IMG/VR virus record: IMGVR_UViG_2681813317_000014
DNA: 31,190 nt
Strand: one strand, 5' to 3'
DNA from: a virus
Taxonomy: Duplodnaviria; Heunggongvirae; Uroviricota; Caudoviricetes
Shown here piece after piece: positions 5,413 to 11,784 of the stretch. Numbering within the stretch: the stretch's first letter is position 1; each line of letters starts with the position of its first letter. Both the position numbers and the translations under genes were made by a program. Under the pieces are notes generated by a model. That model saw only the letters and a program-made list of their open reading frames with translations, was not told the DNA's origin and made no database searches.

Positions 5413-6603
5413 TTAATTGCTGTTAACCGAGGTGACCAGATTCGCCAGGTATTTATCGGTAATACGCTGGCGCAGGGTCAGGTTTTCGAGAGGAGGCGCC
5501 GGTGTATAGTCGTAGTCGATATACAGTTTTCCGGCCTTGAGGGTTTCCGCATCGTTGGATTCTTCGCTGAACCAGCAGGTCGCATCCACGATATAGCCGT
5601 TTGTTTTCAGCTCACGGAATTTGGCATTGATGCCGTCAACGATGTCACGAATCAGCGTTGCGGTGATGGGCTTGTCCACCGCCCACATGTGCGCCTCAGC
5701 CATCGTGTCGGCCAGCACCTGCGCGGTGCGGGTGTAGTTTTCAAAGAGGAACAGCGGGTCATCAGAGCAGGTACGGTTACCCCAGAAGCGGAAACCGTCG
5801 CGGCGAATCAGCGTAGTGACGCCTGACTCGTTAAGCAGGTCAGCATCGGTGCCGGACTCCTGCAAATCCCAGAAGACGGATGCGCTGATGCCGGTAACAC
5901 CGTTCACCCCGACATTGGACAGCGTTTTATGCCAGCCCTGCTCCTGGTCGATTTTAGCGCGCAGACCCAGCGCACGGGCGGTGGCATACGCGGTGGCGGT
6001 GGTACTGGCGACCGTATCCCATGCGAGGAAATCCGGCCAGATGACCATCAGCTCACGCTGGCTGAAATTCTGGCGGTAGGCTTTCACCTCGGAAATGGTC
6101 TTACATCCCCATGCGCTGATATACCCGAAAGCACGCAGCTTCTGACAGACTGATGCCAGTGCAACAGCCACCTCTTTGGTGTCCAGTCCCGGCACGCCGA
6201 GAATACGCGGTTTAACACCAGTTACCGACTCCGCCGCCAGCAGGGCTTTCAGTCCGGTGTACTGACCGTTTTCGTCGGTGGTGCCGATGATATTGGAAAC
6301 GGTCTGCGCGAGTTTTGTTTCCTCGTCGTCGCCGGTGCCGTCTTCCACACGCACGACAACGGTGACCGGTTTTGACTGGTCAGCGATGGCCTGCAACGAC
6401 GCCGCCAGCGTGCCTTTTTTACCGGCCTTTGCAATTGCGCTTTGCACATTGGTAATCAGCACCGGTTTATTGAGGGGGAAGGTTTCCGCATCCGCATCGC
6501 TGGCCGTGCAGACCATGCCGACAATGGCAGTGGATACGGTGGAAATGACGCGGGTGCCGTCGTTAATCTCCAGCACCTGCACGCCGTGATGATAGTCACT
6601 CAT
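5413..6603 (-). CDS. FI: Major tail sheath protein FI
   Basis: 396-aa ORF, first gene of the FI-FII-E-T-U-D operon. Size, order and sequence resemble P2 gpFI. Confidence 0.95.
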   Translation of the reverse strand: MSDYHHGVQVLEINDGTRVISTVSTAIVGMVCTASDADAETFPLNKPVLITNVQSAIAKAGKKGTLAASLQAIADQSKPVTVVVRVEDGTGDDEETKLAQTVSNIIGTTDENGQYTGLKALLAAESVTGVKPRILGVPGLDTKEVAVALASVCQKLRAFGYISAWGCKTISEVKAYRQNFSQRELMVIWPDFLAWDTVASTTATAYATARALGLRAKIDQEQGWHKTLSNVGVNGVTGISASVFWDLQESGTDADLLNESGVTTLIRRDGFRFWGNRTCSDDPLFLFENYTRTAQVLADTMAEAHMWAVDKPITATLIRDIVDGINAKFRELKTNGYIVDATCWFSEESNDAETLKAGKLYIDYDYTPAPPLENLTLRQRITDKYLANLVTSVNSN

Positions 6604-6662
6604 CCGTTTAACTCCGTGGTTAATGGGTGAGTGGTATTTTCAGTTGTGCCGGAGATGTCAGG

Positions 6663-7262
6663 CTATTTGTCCCGGTTGGCTAAGGGATGACACAATTTAT
6701 TCTTTGTCGCTGATGAGGGGAATTTTTTATAGAGCGTGGACAGGCCAATATCAAAAATCAGCGCCACACGTTGACGAGATTCCCCCGCAGCCAGCAACCG
6801 TCCGACCTGCTCCCACTCACTCGCGGTGAGTTTCGGTCGTCTGCCACCAATACGACCTTTGGCTCTGGCCGCTTCCAGCCCGGCCCGAGTCCGCTCGACA
6901 ATGAGTTCTCGTTCCATTTCAGCCAGGGCACCCATCACATGAAAGAAAAAACGCCCCATCGGCGTGCTGGTATCAATAGCATCTGTCAGGCTGCGAAAAT
7001 TAACGCCGCGTTCGCGCAGTTCCTCAACCAGAATGACCAGATGCCGCATACTACGCCCCAGCCTGTCCAGCTTCCAGACTACCAGAGTGTCACCTGCTGA
7101 TAATGTCCTGAGCAGTTTTTTCAGTCCCGGCCTGTCGGACTTCGTGCCGCTGATTTTGTCCTCAAAAATCAGCTCACATCCTGCGCACTCCAGCGCATTA
7201 CGCTGCAATTCCGTGTTCTGGTCATTTGTTGACACGCGTACATAGCCAATAAGCATGAGCAT
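6663..7262 (-). CDS. Site-specific DNA invertase, serine recombinase (Hin/Gin/Cin/Pin family)
   Basis: N-terminus M-LIGYVRVSTNDQNTELQRNAL with the catalytic Ser in the VRVST motif, and a C-terminal helix-turn-helix. Near-identical in layout to Gin/Pin/Cin. The true start is probably the internal Met at 7256 (MLIGYV...). It lies adjacent to cix-like sites and invertible tail-fibre cassettes. Confidence 0.92.
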   Translation of the reverse strand: MLMLIGYVRVSTNDQNTELQRNALECAGCELIFEDKISGTKSDRPGLKKLLRTLSAGDTLVVWKLDRLGRSMRHLVILVEELRERGVNFRSLTDAIDTSTPMGRFFFHVMGALAEMERELIVERTRAGLEAARAKGRIGGRRPKLTASEWEQVGRLLAAGESRQRVALIFDIGLSTLYKKFPSSATKNKLCHPLANRDK

Positions 7263-7283
7263 CCCCCTGAATAAAAACCGGAG

Positions 7284-7697
7284 ATGATGCCAGTTACCCG
7301 TTATCTCTGCATTTTCATAAACGTTGGTTTGGGAGAAGCGGCAAAACGGAATGTGGGGACAGGGGAAAATCAGATACCGGACATGGCCTCGTTTGCCAGT
7401 GGTGATGGATGGATGAAATTACCCAACGGGAAAATCCTGCAATATGGTCGAGGTGAGGCTATGCCGAAATTATCGACGCAAACAATGAGGATTACATTTC
7501 CTATCCCTTTCCCTAAAAAAGCGGATATCGCCATTCTTACCCATTCTGGCGATGGCGGTGCGCCTTTTGGTGCAGGGCGTGGATTCGTTATGTCCGTAGA
7601 AGGCCCAACATTAACCGGCTTTAATTCTGCTTACAGAACTGCATCAACCAGCGACAAGGTGTCAATGACTTACAGTTGGTGGGCTGTTGGTGAATAA
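7284..7697 (+). CDS. Silent tail-fibre C-terminal cassette C1, copy a (duplicate of H residues about 341-473 with an 18-codon unique leader)
   Basis: The 137-aa ORF is identical from [16 protein letters not shown]... to the end with the C-terminus of the 473-aa H ORF (10363..11784, minus). It is fused to H-type sequence exactly at the cix site. Probably not independently expressed. Confidence 0.5.
7312..7337 (+). other. cix/gix-like 26-bp invertase crossover site 1 (TTTTCATAAACG TT GGTTTGGGAGAA)
   Basis: The right arm is identical to the arms of sites 2 and 3; the left arm is degenerate (about 8 of 12). The central TT dinucleotide and the AAACC-NN-GGTTT core resemble hix/gix/cix sites. It lies between the invertase start and the duplicated C1 cassette. 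Confidence 0.55.
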
Positions 7698-8267
7698 TTT
7701 TATTCAGGATGATTTATATGAACGAATATGTTTATAGCGCAAGGCATAATGCTTTTTTCCCTGTGGATATGATTGATAAATATAAATCAGAGGGATGGGA
7801 TTTATCAGATGCTAAGGAGGTGAGTCAAAATATTATCAGTGAATTTATGGCTGAACCGCCACAAGGAAAAATCCGTATTGCCGGAGGTGATGGGCTGCCC
7901 GCGTGGGCGGATATTCCTGCCCCTACGCATGAAGAACTTATTGAAATTACTGAATCAGAAAGACAGCTACTAATTAATCAGGCCAACGATTATATGAACA
8001 GTAAACAATGGCCTGGTAAAGCGGCTATTGGTCGTCTGAAAGGCGAGGAACTGGCGCAATATAATCTGTGGCTGGATTATCTGGACGCACTGGAACTGGT
8101 CGATACTTCCGGTGCGCCAGATATTAAATGGCCTACGCCTCCGGCAGTTCAGGCCAGATGACATCCGGCGCGGTGCTGGTATCTGTTGCCGTCACCGCGT
8201 CAGTGTAATCCAGCACGGCGTTAAGTCGGGTTGTTTCTGCCTGCGTCAGTTTCCGTCCGGCCTGCAA
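7324..8267. repeat. Inverted duplication arm A (C1 cassette + tfa1 + 3' end of tfa2), partner 9793..10736
   Basis: Reverse-complement identity was checked directly at both ends (7324..7349 against 10711..10736; 8251..8267 against 9793..9809). Encoded proteins are identical throughout. Internal nucleotides were not checked base by base. Confidence 0.8.
7709..8161 (+). CDS. Tail fibre assembly protein, cassette-1 chaperone, duplicate copy a
   Basis: 150-aa ORF identical in protein sequence to ORF 9899..10351 (-). It lies within the 944-bp inverted duplication (coordinates pair as p and 18060 minus p). Confidence 0.7.
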   Translation: MIYMNEYVYSARHNAFFPVDMIDKYKSEGWDLSDAKEVSQNIISEFMAEPPQGKIRIAGGDGLPAWADIPAPTHEELIEITESERQLLINQANDYMNSKQWPGKAAIGRLKGEELAQYNLWLDYLDALELVDTSGAPDIKWPTPPAVQAR

Positions 8268-9325
8268 CCCGTAAATACGTGGATGATGAAGTCCTGGAAT
8301 TAAGGCTGTATGTGGATGAACAGATGAGAAACCACATTGCCGCACAGGATCCTCATACCCAGTATGCACAGAAACATAATCCGACATTTACCGGAGAACC
8401 AAAAGCGCCGACGCCTGATGCAGGAAATAACACCACGCGGATTGCGACCACTGCGTTTGTACAGGCTGCTATTACCGCTCTGATTAACGGTGCGCCAGCC
8501 ACGCTGGACACACTGAAAGAAATTGCCGCAGCCATTAACAATGACCCGAAATTCAGCACCACCATTAACAATGCGCTGGCACTGAAAGCGCCGCTGTCGA
8601 GTCCCGCACTTACCGGAACGCCAACAGCACCTACTGCGGCACAGTCGGTCAACAATACACAGATTGCCACCACGGCTTTTGTGAAATCAGCAATTGCGGC
8701 AATGGTGGGTTCTGCCCCTGCGGCACTGGATACACTGAATGAACTGGCGGCGGCGCTGGGGAATGACCCTAACTTTTCAACAACAGTGCTTAATGCACTG
8801 GCAGGCAAACAACCGCTGGACAATACGCTTACTAATTTGAGTGGAAAGGATGTGGCTGGTCTTCTCGCATACCTTGGTTTGGGAGAAGGCTCTGCATTAC
8901 CTGTTGGTGTCCCTGTTCCGTGGCCTTCAGCTACGCCGCCAACAGGCTGGCTGAAATGCAATGGCGCTGCCTTTGATAAGGTTAAATATCCCCGTCTTGC
9001 TACAGCATATCCATCAGGGAAACTACCTGATCTCCGCGGTGAGTTTATTCGTGGCTGGGATGATGGGCGCGGCATTGATACAGGGCGTGCTTTATTGAGT
9101 ATTCAGAGTGATGAAGTCAGAAAGCTCGCATTAAAATACTGGGGACCAGCTTCAAACAGTTCACCATCAAAAACATTTGCACTCAGCGACAGTGCCGGTG
9201 GCGGGTTGTACACGGATGGAATAAGTCAGGCAAGCGGTGGGATTATCAACGCTTTTCAGCTCCCTGGTGGTAACGAAACCCGCCCACGAAATGTTGCATT
9301 TAACTATATCGTGAGGGCTGCATAA
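8231..9325 (+). CDS. Alternative tail-fibre cassette: 5'-truncated H middle region fused to variable C-terminal receptor-binding domain C2
   Basis: 364-aa ORF. Residues about 12-216 are identical to the H middle region. After the YLGLGE junction (cix site 2) it continues into a different C-terminus (GSALPVGVPVPWPSATPPTGWLKCNGAAFDKVKYPRLA...NVAFNYIVRAA) of the Mu S / P1 S / P2 H tail-fibre tip type. It would fuse to H after inversion between sites 2 and 3. Confidence 0.65.
   Translation: MFLPASVSVRPATRKYVDDEVLELRLYVDEQMRNHIAAQDPHTQYAQKHNPTFTGEPKAPTPDAGNNTTRIATTAFVQAAITALINGAPATLDTLKEIAAAINNDPKFSTTINNALALKAPLSSPALTGTPTAPTAAQSVNNTQIATTAFVKSAIAAMVGSAPAALDTLNELAAALGNDPNFSTTVLNALAGKQPLDNTLTNLSGKDVAGLLAYLGLGEGSALPVGVPVPWPSATPPTGWLKCNGAAFDKVKYPRLATAYPSGKLPDLRGEFIRGWDDGRGIDTGRALLSIQSDEVRKLALKYWGPASNSSPSKTFALSDSAGGGLYTDGISQASGGIINAFQLPGGNETRPRNVAFNYIVRAA
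8268..8887. repeat. Inverted duplication arm M (copy of H middle region, codons about 149-344, ending in cix site 2), partner 10723..11342
   Basis: ORF 8231..9325 shares the segment ATRKYVDDEV...AGLLAYLGLGE with H. Reverse-complement identity was checked at both ends (8268..8291 against 11319..11342; 8860..8887 against 10723..10750), with coordinates pairing as p and 19610 minus p. It abuts arm A with no spacer at 8267/8268. Confidence 0.8.
8862..8887 (+). other. cix/gix-like 26-bp crossover site 2 (TTCTCGCATACC TT GGTTTGGGAGAA)
   Basis: Imperfect 12-bp inverted arms around a 2-bp core, strongly resembling hixL (TTCTTGAAAACC AA GGTTTTTGATAA) from memory. It is the exact reverse complement of site 3 and lies on the codons for LGLGE at the constant/variable junction. 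Confidence 0.6.
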
Positions 9326-9927
9326 TGGATAATGCTGTATTAAATAGCGAGTTTATTGCCACGAAGGCGGGGAATATTACCGTCTATAACTATGATAGTG
9401 AAACACGGGAATATATTTCCACATCAACTGAATATCTTGCTGTGGGGGTCGGTATTCCAGCATGTTCCTGTCTTGATGCACCTGGCATACATAAGGTTGG
9501 TTATGCAATCTGTCGTTCTGTGAATTTAAATTCATGGGAATATGTGCCAGACCATCGCGGTAAAATCGTCTATAGCACAGAAACAGGAGAATCAAAAGAA
9601 ATCACAGCTCCGGGTGATTACCCTGAAAATACAACCACTATCGCCCCTTTATCTCCATACGATAAATGGGATGGTGAGAAATGGGTGACCGATACTGAGG
9701 CACAGCATAGCGCCGCAGTCGAAGCGGCAGAAGCACAGCGCCAGTCACTGATTGATGCTGCTATGGCTTCCATCAGTCTGATTCAACTGAAATTGCAGGC
9801 CGGACGGAAACTGACGCAGGCAGAAACAACCCGACTTAACGCCGTGCTGGATTACACTGACGCGGTGACGGCAACAGATACCAGCACCGCGCCGGATGTC
9901 ATCTGGCCTGAACTGCCGGAGGCGTAG
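9325..9927 (+). CDS. Tail fibre assembly protein, cassette-2 chaperone (Tfa/gpG/Mu U-like)
   Basis: 200-aa ORF directly downstream of the C2 cassette. Its C-terminal tail (LQAGRKLTQAETTRLNAVLDYTDAVTATDTSTAPDVIWPELPEA) is of the tail-fibre chaperone type. Its last 29 nt overlap, on the opposite strand, the 3' end of the convergent tfa1 gene. Confidence 0.8.
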   Translation: MDNAVLNSEFIATKAGNITVYNYDSETREYISTSTEYLAVGVGIPACSCLDAPGIHKVGYAICRSVNLNSWEYVPDHRGKIVYSTETGESKEITAPGDYPENTTTIAPLSPYDKWDGEKWVTDTEAQHSAAVEAAEAQRQSLIDAAMASISLIQLKLQAGRKLTQAETTRLNAVLDYTDAVTATDTSTAPDVIWPELPEA

Positions 9928-10736
9928 GCCATTTAATATCTGGCGCACCGGAAGTATCGACCAGTTCCAGTGCGTCCAGATAATCCAGCCACAGATTATA
10001 TTGCGCCAGTTCCTCGCCTTTCAGACGACCAATAGCCGCTTTACCAGGCCATTGTTTACTGTTCATATAATCGTTGGCCTGATTAATTAGTAGCTGTCTT
10101 TCTGATTCAGTAATTTCAATAAGTTCTTCATGCGTAGGGGCAGGAATATCCGCCCACGCGGGCAGCCCATCACCTCCGGCAATACGGATTTTTCCTTGTG
10201 GCGGTTCAGCCATAAATTCACTGATAATATTTTGACTCACCTCCTTAGCATCTGATAAATCCCATCCCTCTGATTTATATTTATCAATCATATCCACAGG
10301 GAAAAAAGCATTATGCCTTGCGCTATAAACATATTCGTTCATATAAATCATCCTGAATAAAATTATTCACCAACAGCCCACCAACTGTAAGTCATTGACA
10401 CCTTGTCGCTGGTTGATGCAGTTCTGTAAGCAGAATTAAAGCCGGTTAATGTTGGGCCTTCTACGGACATAACGAATCCACGCCCTGCACCAAAAGGCGC
10501 ACCGCCATCGCCAGAATGGGTAAGAATGGCGATATCCGCTTTTTTAGGGAAAGGGATAGGAAATGTAATCCTCATTGTTTGCGTCGATAATTTCGGCATA
10601 GCCTCACCTCGACCATATTGCAGGATTTTCCCGTTGGGTAATTTCATCCATCCATCACCACTGGCAAACGAGGCCATGTCCGGTATCTGATTTTCCCCTG
10701 TCCCCACATTCCGTTTTGCCGCTTCTCCCAAACCAA
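9793..10736. repeat. Inverted duplication arm A' (active copy: 3' end of tfa2, tfa1, C1 part of H)
   Basis: Reverse complement of 7324..8267; see arm A. Confidence 0.8.
9899..10351 (-). CDS. G: Tail fibre assembly protein (gene G equivalent, cassette-1 chaperone, currently linked to H)
   Basis: 150-aa ORF 11 nt downstream of the H stop on the same strand. This is the P2 gene G position. Confidence 0.88.
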   Translation of the reverse strand: MIYMNEYVYSARHNAFFPVDMIDKYKSEGWDLSDAKEVSQNIISEFMAEPPQGKIRIAGGDGLPAWADIPAPTHEELIEITESERQLLINQANDYMNSKQWPGKAAIGRLKGEELAQYNLWLDYLDALELVDTSGAPDIKWPTPPAVQAR

Positions 10737-11784
10737 GGTATGCGAGAAGACCAGCCACATCCTTTCCACTCAAATTAGTAAGCGTATTGTCCAGCGGTTG
10801 TTTGCCTGCCAGTGCATTAAGCACTGTTGTTGAAAAGTTAGGGTCATTCCCCAGCGCCGCCGCCAGTTCATTCAGTGTATCCAGTGCCGCAGGGGCAGAA
10901 CCCACCATTGCCGCAATTGCTGATTTCACAAAAGCCGTGGTGGCAATCTGTGTATTGTTGACCGACTGTGCCGCAGTAGGTGCTGTTGGCGTTCCGGTAA
11001 GTGCGGGACTCGACAGCGGCGCTTTCAGTGCCAGCGCATTGTTAATGGTGGTGCTGAATTTCGGGTCATTGTTAATGGCTGCGGCAATTTCTTTCAGTGT
11101 GTCCAGCGTGGCTGGCGCACCGTTAATCAGAGCGGTAATAGCAGCCTGTACAAACGCAGTGGTCGCAATCCGCGTGGTGTTATTTCCTGCATCAGGCGTC
11201 GGCGCTTTTGGTTCTCCGGTAAATGTCGGATTATGTTTCTGTGCATACTGGGTATGAGGATCCTGTGCGGCAATGTGGTTTCTCATCTGTTCATCCACAT
11301 ACAGCCTTAATTCCAGGACTTCATCATCCACGTATTTACGGGTCGCCAGTACCACCGACGGGTCGATTTTCAGCGTGATGGCTTCGGTATTCGTGACAAC
11401 CAGAATCATGCGGATAGTCTGGGTACGACCACTGCCTTCCTGCAACTGCGGTTTGTACGTTTCCGGGCAGTTCGCCACCGCAATGAGTACGCCTTCATCA
11501 TCATAAAGCCCAATCTCACGGATCCAGAATCCGCCCTCGTTCTCAGGGATGATTTGCTCCGCAATAATCTGGCTCTGGTTGTTCGGGTCAACACTCAGAA
11601 GATTCAGCGGCGCGATGCGTTTCTGGCTAATCAGTTTTGTCTGTGCCGGGTCTGGTGTCGGCAAGACACCATTCGCATCACCAACGGCCATTTGCGTCAG
11701 ATTCAGCTTACTGCCGAGCATCGTCGCGTTAGCCAGCCGTGCTGCGCCCTGATTAGTCAGAATGGCGTAGTATTTCACTGTCAT
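10363..11784 (-). CDS. H: Tail fibre protein H (constant N-terminal and middle part plus variable C-terminal cassette C1)
   Basis: 473-aa ORF with an N-terminus of the P2 H type (MAVGD..., GGFW.RE.GLYDD.G.LIAVAN motif) and the conserved YLGLGE junction followed by the variable C-terminus. Its start overlaps the gene I stop by 4 nt. Confidence 0.9.
   Translation of the reverse strand: MTVKYYAILTNQGAARLANATMLGSKLNLTQMAVGDANGVLPTPDPAQTKLISQKRIAPLNLLSVDPNNQSQIIAEQIIPENEGGFWIREIGLYDDEGVLIAVANCPETYKPQLQEGSGRTQTIRMILVVTNTEAITLKIDPSVVLATRKYVDDEVLELRLYVDEQMRNHIAAQDPHTQYAQKHNPTFTGEPKAPTPDAGNNTTRIATTAFVQAAITALINGAPATLDTLKEIAAAINNDPKFSTTINNALALKAPLSSPALTGTPTAPTAAQSVNNTQIATTAFVKSAIAAMVGSAPAALDTLNELAAALGNDPNFSTTVLNALAGKQPLDNTLTNLSGKDVAGLLAYLGLGEAAKRNVGTGENQIPDMASFASGDGWMKLPNGKILQYGRGEAMPKLSTQTMRITFPIPFPKKADIAILTHSGDGGAPFGAGRGFVMSVEGPTLTGFNSAYRTASTSDKVSMTYSWWAVGE
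10723..10748 (+). other. cix/gix-like 26-bp crossover site 3 (TTCTCCCAAACC AA GGTATGCGAGAA), inside H
   Basis: Exact reverse complement of site 2. It lies in H at the LGLGE codons, in inverted orientation relative to sites 1 and 2. Confidence 0.6.
10723..11342. repeat. Inverted duplication arm M' (H middle region, active copy)
   Basis: Reverse complement of 8268..8887; see arm M. Confidence 0.8.

Follow-up and report, generated by a model that had tools for sequence, protein, structure and literature searches.

The tail-fibre locus studied here displays three images of a DNA-invertase crossover site and an apparent duplication of about 1.55 kb, raising the question of whether it is a multi-site inversion system or a simple two-site switch, and whether a recombination site that is also read as protein is constrained in both roles. 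We analysed the locus within a stretch of 31,190 nucleotides (IMG/VR record IMGVR_UViG_2681813317_000014), here termed the window, which is a P2-like prophage from a draft enterobacterial genome, most likely of E. coli.

Layout of the tail-fibre locus and its invertase

On the minus strand, a tail sheath gene (5413-6603) is followed in the numbering by a gene for a Pin-like serine DNA invertase (6663-7256, minus strand; the open reading frame as listed starts two codons earlier, at 7262). At the other end of the locus lies the tail-fibre gene H, whose constant part (10749-11784, minus strand) matches the Pfam Phage_tail_fib N-terminal domain (9.6e-62) and is now fused, within a 473-aa reading frame, to a C-terminal fibre tip, SvA (10363-10722, minus strand; Pfam Gp53-like_C), with its cognate chaperone encoded by tail-fibre assembly gene A (9899-10351, minus strand; Pfam Caudo_TAP, 3.8e-30). 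An alternative C-terminal tip, SvB (8888-9325, plus strand; Pfam Collar domain), is silent in the present orientation and is accompanied by its own cognate chaperone, assembly gene B (9325-9927, plus strand; Pfam Caudo_TAP, 8.7e-33). Reading frames and domains show two mirror-image fibre C-termini with cognate chaperones, fused in frame at a crossover site. Past its GLGE start, SvB reads GSALPVGVPV, which is identical in stfE of the e14 element. The 3' ends of the convergent chaperone genes share 29 bp (9899-9927), and the C-terminal coding regions of the two genes are alike in inverted orientation, which is visible as short repeats (9846-9863 and 9972-9989).

The slot between the fibre-assembly and tail-sheath genes holds the invertase and the alternative cassette here (6603-7312) and the non-essential Z/fun gene in P2 (L008, 4176-5762), a phage without an invertase. 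In the closest relatives, H is annotated as a pseudogene or is not called at full length (4746-5135 in L001, which is FRIK944; 1231-2241 in L163), so that functional fibres may have been lost in some of these prophages.

The invertase is a small serine recombinase with a resolvase domain (Pfam Resolvase, 2.8e-52) and a C-terminal helix-turn-helix (HTH_7). It matches the structure of Mu Gin (3uj3, E = 1e-93), with YVRVSTNDQ aligned to the active-site motif conserved near the N-terminus; identities are 86% with e14 PinE, 78% with P1 Cin and 76% with Mu Gin. Homology also points to a candidate recombinational enhancer of 72 bp inside the 5' end of the gene (7167-7238, minus strand), which is identical at 57/72 positions to the annotated P1 cin enhancer (gene nucleotides 19-90) and at 62/72 to e14 pinE, although this conservation is not specific, because the region is coding. 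In L098 the H-proximal site is intact and is accompanied by another site-like sequence, inverted and with three consensus mismatches (8037 and 9928), but the 7 kb downstream contain no invertase; its sites may be served by an invertase in trans, by analogy with what has been proposed for EC958 Phi4 (PMC4134206). In L118 the invertase lies ~6.5 kb off, in the opposite orientation.

Three site images were found in the window. Site 1 (7312-7337, plus strand; TTTTCATAAACGTTGGTTTGGGAGAA, that is TTTTCATAAACG TT GGTTTGGGAGAA) is proximal to the invertase and is joined in the window to the SvA cassette, as in the flipped state; site 2 (8862-8887, plus strand; TTCTCGCATACCTTGGTTTGGGAGAA) is an H-proximal site joined to the SvB cassette and has the central TT and the right arm in common with site 1; site 3 (10723-10748, minus strand) is proximal to H and encodes (L)LAYLGLGE. 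A scan of both strands of the 31 kb with the family consensus TTCTCNNAAACCNNGGTTTNNGAGAA, allowing up to 3 mismatches, returned exactly these three sequences, with two mismatches in site 1 and one each in sites 2 and 3, while the same scan returned 0 matches in 100 shuffles.

Origin of the third site and of the 1.55-kb duplication

Sites 2 and 3 were described in an earlier note on this DNA as exact reverse complements, and so they are; however, they carry no independent information, as both are identical because they form the last 26 bp of a 625-nt inverted repeat of 100% identity (8264-8888 versus 10722-11346). Site 1, in turn, ends a 956-nt repeat (7312-8267 versus 9793-10748). Between 7338 and 8266, the window is over 944-956 nt a 99-100% reverse complement of 9793-10748, and contains redundant plus-strand copies of the SvA tip (7338-7697), of assembly gene A (7709-8161) and of the 3' end of assembly gene B (up to 8266). 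Adjacent to it, 8268-8861 is a 100% reverse complement of 10749-11342 and represents an inverted, partial plus-strand copy of constant H sequence that starts at residue ~147. Taken together, the two repeat blocks amount to a single contiguous stretch of 1.55 kb, circularly permuted by being opened at the site, and they abut at position 8267.

Comparison with the source record (GCA_001283685.1, CYBS01000015.1) revealed a single difference in 13,002 bases compared: position 8267 is A in the window and N in the record. The A was apparently substituted for a gap character, hiding a scaffold join. The junction (8264-8267) is essentially without microhomology. As the repeat blocks meet at this N, two contigs were abutted here, the first closing with the 3' end of assembly gene B and the second ending in the copy of H as a terminal hairpin, and site 2 is a duplicate of site 3 that arose in assembly and shows it as it stands after the flip. 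Only two sites are real, and the three crossover sites of the earlier note are not supported.

Megablast searches of 50,697 phage records and of 5,426 complete E. coli genomes did not find the junction, nor did exact-match scans of IMG/VR and GTDB contigs. One match (H64) consists of two pieces 668 bp apart and is not the junction. A protein lookup with the 364-aa reading frame spanning the junction gave no match; its shorter 333-aa version, which starts at the ATG at 8324, matched the source contig. Relatives with two sites are exactly 1,551 bp shorter (3,650 versus 5,201 bp), as seen in FRIK944 (L001) and ERZ27318385. E. coli O157:H7 FRIK944 has a plain two-site locus that is 99.7-100% identical, and the metagenome contig L162 has a plain two-site locus with an identical H protein. 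In two-site relatives, the type of junction seen at site 2, an H-proximal site followed by SvB, occurs in the flipped orientation only (L002, L164). All close relatives are two-site, which does not fit a multi-site system of the shufflon-like or Min type.

Analogous duplications with other end points occur in two unrelated IMG/VR scaffolds, L086 (9061) and L115 (3544), each with a single N exactly at the join; the false duplication in L115 displays two copies of the invertase gene. In contigs L129 and L140 the end is formed by a hairpin that runs from H through a site, the segment and the second site into the reverse complement of H (262 bp in L129, 7802-8063 versus 9927-10188; 462 bp in L140, 7589-8050 versus 9540-10001). 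Such terminal hairpins look like recurrent assembler behaviour at switching segments. For three fibre segments of E. coli prophages, with 26-bp crossover sites, Forde et al. 2014 (PMC4134206) obtained contigs in alternative orientations, and they warned explicitly that integrating such contigs causes 'artefactual duplications in phage regions'.

We therefore read the locus as a two-site switch of the Pin/e14 type in a P2-like prophage, with an artefactual third site and 1.55-kb duplication, and put the probability of this reading at about 90%. In the history that we propose, the sequenced DNA held both orientations of the segment, and the assembler would have given two overlapping contigs, one per orientation, that the scaffolder abutted with a one-N gap at window position 8267. 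Contig 1 would end inside the segment in one orientation, and contig 2 would start with a hairpin-like run into H in the other, and the join of two orientations would explain why, of the four junctions that are possible, H-A, H-B and invertase-A appear in the window. The same k-mers would not be expected twice in the output of a de Bruijn assembler on its own, and a gap-filling or contig-extension step must be assumed.

Indirect but specific evidence that inversion takes place at the sites comes from natural isomers and from contig ends. L163 and L164, draft assemblies of two strains, contain the same prophage at 99.2-99.9% identity and are colinear except for an inverted block of 1.87 kb. At one breakpoint the overlap is confined to TTGGTTTGGGAGAAG, and at the second to 18 bp, placing the exchange within 15 bp. 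The isomers L001 and L002 behave in the same way, with the break inside the site, so the inversion junctions do map to the sites. Furthermore, of 80 IMG/VR contigs with an H homologue, 10 stop in the interval from -9 to +2 bp around the final base of the site (six of them exactly on that base). Among 71 contigs of species-representative genomes, ~12 start at the position of the invertase-proximal site or no more than ~25 nt from it. Such a pattern would be expected of sequenced DNA that contains both orientations. The two contigs of the window likewise carry both the H-A and the H-B junction. We infer that both orientations coexisted in one culture, as has been documented by sequencing and PCR for the e14 PinE segment and for P2-like prophages (Goldberg et al. 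2014, PMC4272514).

The same mis-scaffold would, however, be expected if the host carried two near-identical P2-like prophages fixed in opposite orientations, with no switching in culture. E. coli genomes hold a median of two places matching the locus, and the same prophage does occupy different chromosomal sites in different strains (the pflB-focA-ycaO side in one of L163 and L164, fieF-pfkA in the other). Since the window contig spans one prophage in full, unrelated assemblies widely show contig breaks at the sites, and mixed orientations in single cultures are on record (PMC4272514, PMC4134206), we regard an origin from two prophages as unlikely.

A real three-site layout fares worse. It would have arisen by a tandem duplication of ~1.55 kb (from H residue ~147 through the site and tip A to chaperone A) followed by two inversions, making the locus a nascent, multi-site shufflon-like switch. 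The topology is precisely that expected from one illegitimate join and two legitimate inversions, and EPEC has a P2-like prophage with a genuine three-repeat, four-variant module (PMC4272514). We enumerated the states and the RecA stability of such a duplication, which could equally be described as an excised circle that integrated at the proximal site, and dropped the model given the N at the junction in the source record and the same pattern in L086 and L115. The 100% identity of the duplicate copies and the absence of the junction from every collection searched also speak against it, and the duplicated cassette gives no additional fibre variant; we consider a real layout highly improbable. 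It is harder still to credit that the N is a coincidence and that a real duplication spanning the crossover site produced a third functional site, an arrangement that would be shielded from RecA-mediated loss because both repeat pairs are inverted and that would, if true, be an intermediate caught in the act towards multi-site inversion systems such as Min and the EPEC three-repeat module.

The two-site reading carries a caution for draft assemblies of switching cultures, where duplications and additional recombination sites can be false and 'extra' fibre genes truncated, and where a base put in place of an N can conceal the join.

Crossover sites in the tail-fibre reading frame

To compare the sites with those of known invertases, we aligned them, oriented from the constant to the variable side, with the annotated cixL and cixR of P1, the boundaries of the Mu G segment and the site-like sequences flanking the e14 invertible segment. 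The H-proximal site of the window (TTCTCGCATACC TT GGTTTGGGAGAA) is read as CTT CTC GCA TAC CTT GGT TTG GGA GAA, encoding LLAYLGLGE, with the core TT at positions 2-3 of the second-to-last Leu codon, that is of the Leu preceding GLGE in L-L-A-Y-L-G-L-G-E. Its counterparts are the e14 distal site in stfP (CTCTCGAAAACC TT GGTTTGGGAGAA, ALENLGLGE), P1 cixR in S (TTATCCAATACC TT GGTTTAAGAGAA, VIQYLGLRE) and Mu gixL in S (TTATCCAAAACC TC GGTTTACAGGAA, FIQNLGLQE). All four are read in one frame, with the core at positions 2-3 of a Leu codon within the motif xLGLxE, and in each the right arm encodes G-L-x-E, the start of the variable tip. Read in this direction, the core is TT in every site image of the window.

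Sites 1 and 3 are two inverted 26-bp sites, each with two imperfect 12-bp half-sites around a 2-bp core, and have the same central dinucleotide, TT. The e14 pinE-proximal site and the FRIK944 proximal site both match site 1 at 26/26 positions. The outer arm of site 1 does not encode protein, and the arm of proximal sites retains a TTT...GA(A/G)AA pattern across many genera. Several statements of the earlier note can be judged on this alignment. Site 1 does share the right arm, as stated there, but calling its left arm degenerate was an overstatement, given the full identity to the e14 site and only two consensus mismatches. The placement of the sites within LAYLGLGE codons is right for H and wrong for the alternative cassette, which has no LAY in the two-site relatives examined. 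The label 'cix' was dropped, since the invertase is closer to PinE than to Cin (86% versus 78%) and the sites are closer to pix; the window sites are better described as of the pix type, nearer pix/Pin than cix/Cin. The gix, cix and pix sites do align with them, in a common frame and with the LGLxE motif.

In two relatives, L002 (2221-2251; a P2-like phage of E. coli O157:H43 T22) and L110 (3903), the left arm of the invertase-proximal site is entirely of the H type rather than of the non-coding e14 type, and the site agrees with the H-proximal one over 31 bp; past conversion or exchange there may have left this trace.

The motif also coincides with a change of homology between fibre proteins. 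Residues 1-337 of P2 H are 51% identical to residues 1-340 of window H, and residues 376-667 of P2 H are 46% identical to residues 167-502 of Mu S, a match that begins three residues before the motif; between Mu S and window H no similarity was detectable. At residue 379, P2 H carries TTATCGAATATCTCGGTTTACAGGAA, encoding VIEYLGLQE, with a core and right arm identical to those of Mu. This sequence is a gix-like relic, located exactly where homology turns from window H to Mu S. The proposal that the motif is a mosaic joint of tail fibres is borne out by this switch, and the site marks a joint common to the P2, Mu, P1 and e14 fibres.

We then asked how the spelling of the right arm relates to the presence of an invertase, using 39 loci with H homologues and at least 4 kb of sequence past the site, a small set that is uncorrected for phylogeny. 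The exact right arm GGTTTGGGAGAA was found in 25/31 loci with a downstream invertase and in 2/8 without one (Fisher p = 0.006), so that the exact arm is commoner among H homologues accompanied by an invertase. Of the loci without an invertase, L095 (GGTTTAGGGGAA) and L104 (GGTTTGGGCGAG) keep the GLGE peptide with synonymous DNA, and L125, L138 and L139 have lost the motif altogether. The spelling GGT TTG GGA GAA is thus preserved where an invertase is present and drifts synonymously where it is absent, comparative evidence which supports the suggestion of the earlier note that protein and recombination site may constrain the same bases.

Alternatively, YLGLGE could be kept for protein reasons alone, for example as a fibre domain linker, its overlap with the site being incidental and placing no constraint on the DNA. 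Loci such as L095 and L104 would be expected on this account, as would the YLGLQE that P2 H retains without an invertase. The association of the exact right arm with the invertase, the conservation across genera of the outer arm of the proximal site, which encodes no protein, and the breakpoints of natural isomers within the site all weigh against it, and we judge a purely protein-based explanation very unlikely. That the crossover site doubles as coding sequence, lying within tail-fibre codons in the same frame in Mu, P1 and e14, was correctly recognised in the earlier note; both this dual use and the mosaic reading are, however, textbook knowledge, the junction having long been known (Sandmeier 1994, as cited in PMC4134206; PMC4272514).

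Proposed switch and comparison with known invertible segments

In the mechanism that we propose, invertase dimers would bind the two real sites, the H-proximal and the invertase-proximal one, probably assisted by a Fis-bound enhancer in the first ~90 nt of the invertase gene, as the resemblance to the P1 enhancer suggests. Strand exchange at the central TT would flip ~1.86 kb containing the two mirror-image cassettes, each with a fibre tip and a chaperone. Depending on the orientation, the constant part of H would be continued in frame by tip A, the gp53-like one, or by tip B, with its collar domain, and the matching chaperone would lie downstream of the fused tip. The left arm and core would contribute the ..LAYL of the constant part, and the right arm GGTTTGGGAGAA the GLGE that opens every tip. 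With the right arm encoding GLGE at the start of the tip, any tip that has this arm should be joinable in frame, which would in turn explain the same motif at the mosaic boundaries of Mu, P1, e14 and P2 fibres. The scheme presumes an active enzyme and a functional enhancer, and would predict an effect on host range: with a serine-invertase site in the fibre reading frame, a phage can swap its receptor-binding tips.

Among known systems, the resemblance to Min of p15B and to the three-repeat P2-like module of EPEC is superficial. The window as assembled shows three sites that would permit two nested inversions, but the known systems have distinct cassettes and are experimentally validated, whereas the third site of the window stems from a contig join with an N.

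The C segment of P1 (Cin/cix) and the G segment of Mu (Gin/gix) share with the window the enzyme family (78% and 76% identity), the 12-2-12 architecture of the sites, the xLGLxE frame and the mirror-image cassettes of tip and chaperone. The arms of cix and gix differ from those of the window, as aligned above, and the core is TC in Mu and TT in the window. In P1, both tips open with identical sequence just inside the sites, reflecting ~0.6-kb inverted repeats inside the C segment. The long repeats of the window, unlike these, lie outside site 2 and are artefactual.

Closer still is the P segment of e14 in E. coli K-12, with an invertase 86% identical and a proximal site matching at 26/26 positions. 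The e14 distal site has the same core and right arm, encoding ..NLGLGE, tip B and its chaperone match stfE/tfaE, and inversion likewise fuses a constant 5' reading frame to alternative 3' parts (PMC4272514). The two differ at three positions in the left arm of the distal site (TTCTCGCATACC in the window, CTCTCGAAAACC in e14) and in tip A, which is a gp53-like domain in the window. They differ also in setting: e14 itself is a defective lambdoid element, unlike the window prophage, which is P2-like and apparently intact and holds the module between its tail-fibre and tail-sheath genes.

The P2-like prophages of E. coli, namely EC958 Phi1/2/4 and those of EPEC E2348/69 and O157 strains, share with the window the gene order and 26-bp sites with a central dinucleotide, and both orientations of their modules coexist in cultures (PMC4272514, PMC4134206). 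The scaffold-derived redundancy of 1.55 kb is the sole difference in the window; in FRIK944, the window module itself is present at 99.7-100% identity.
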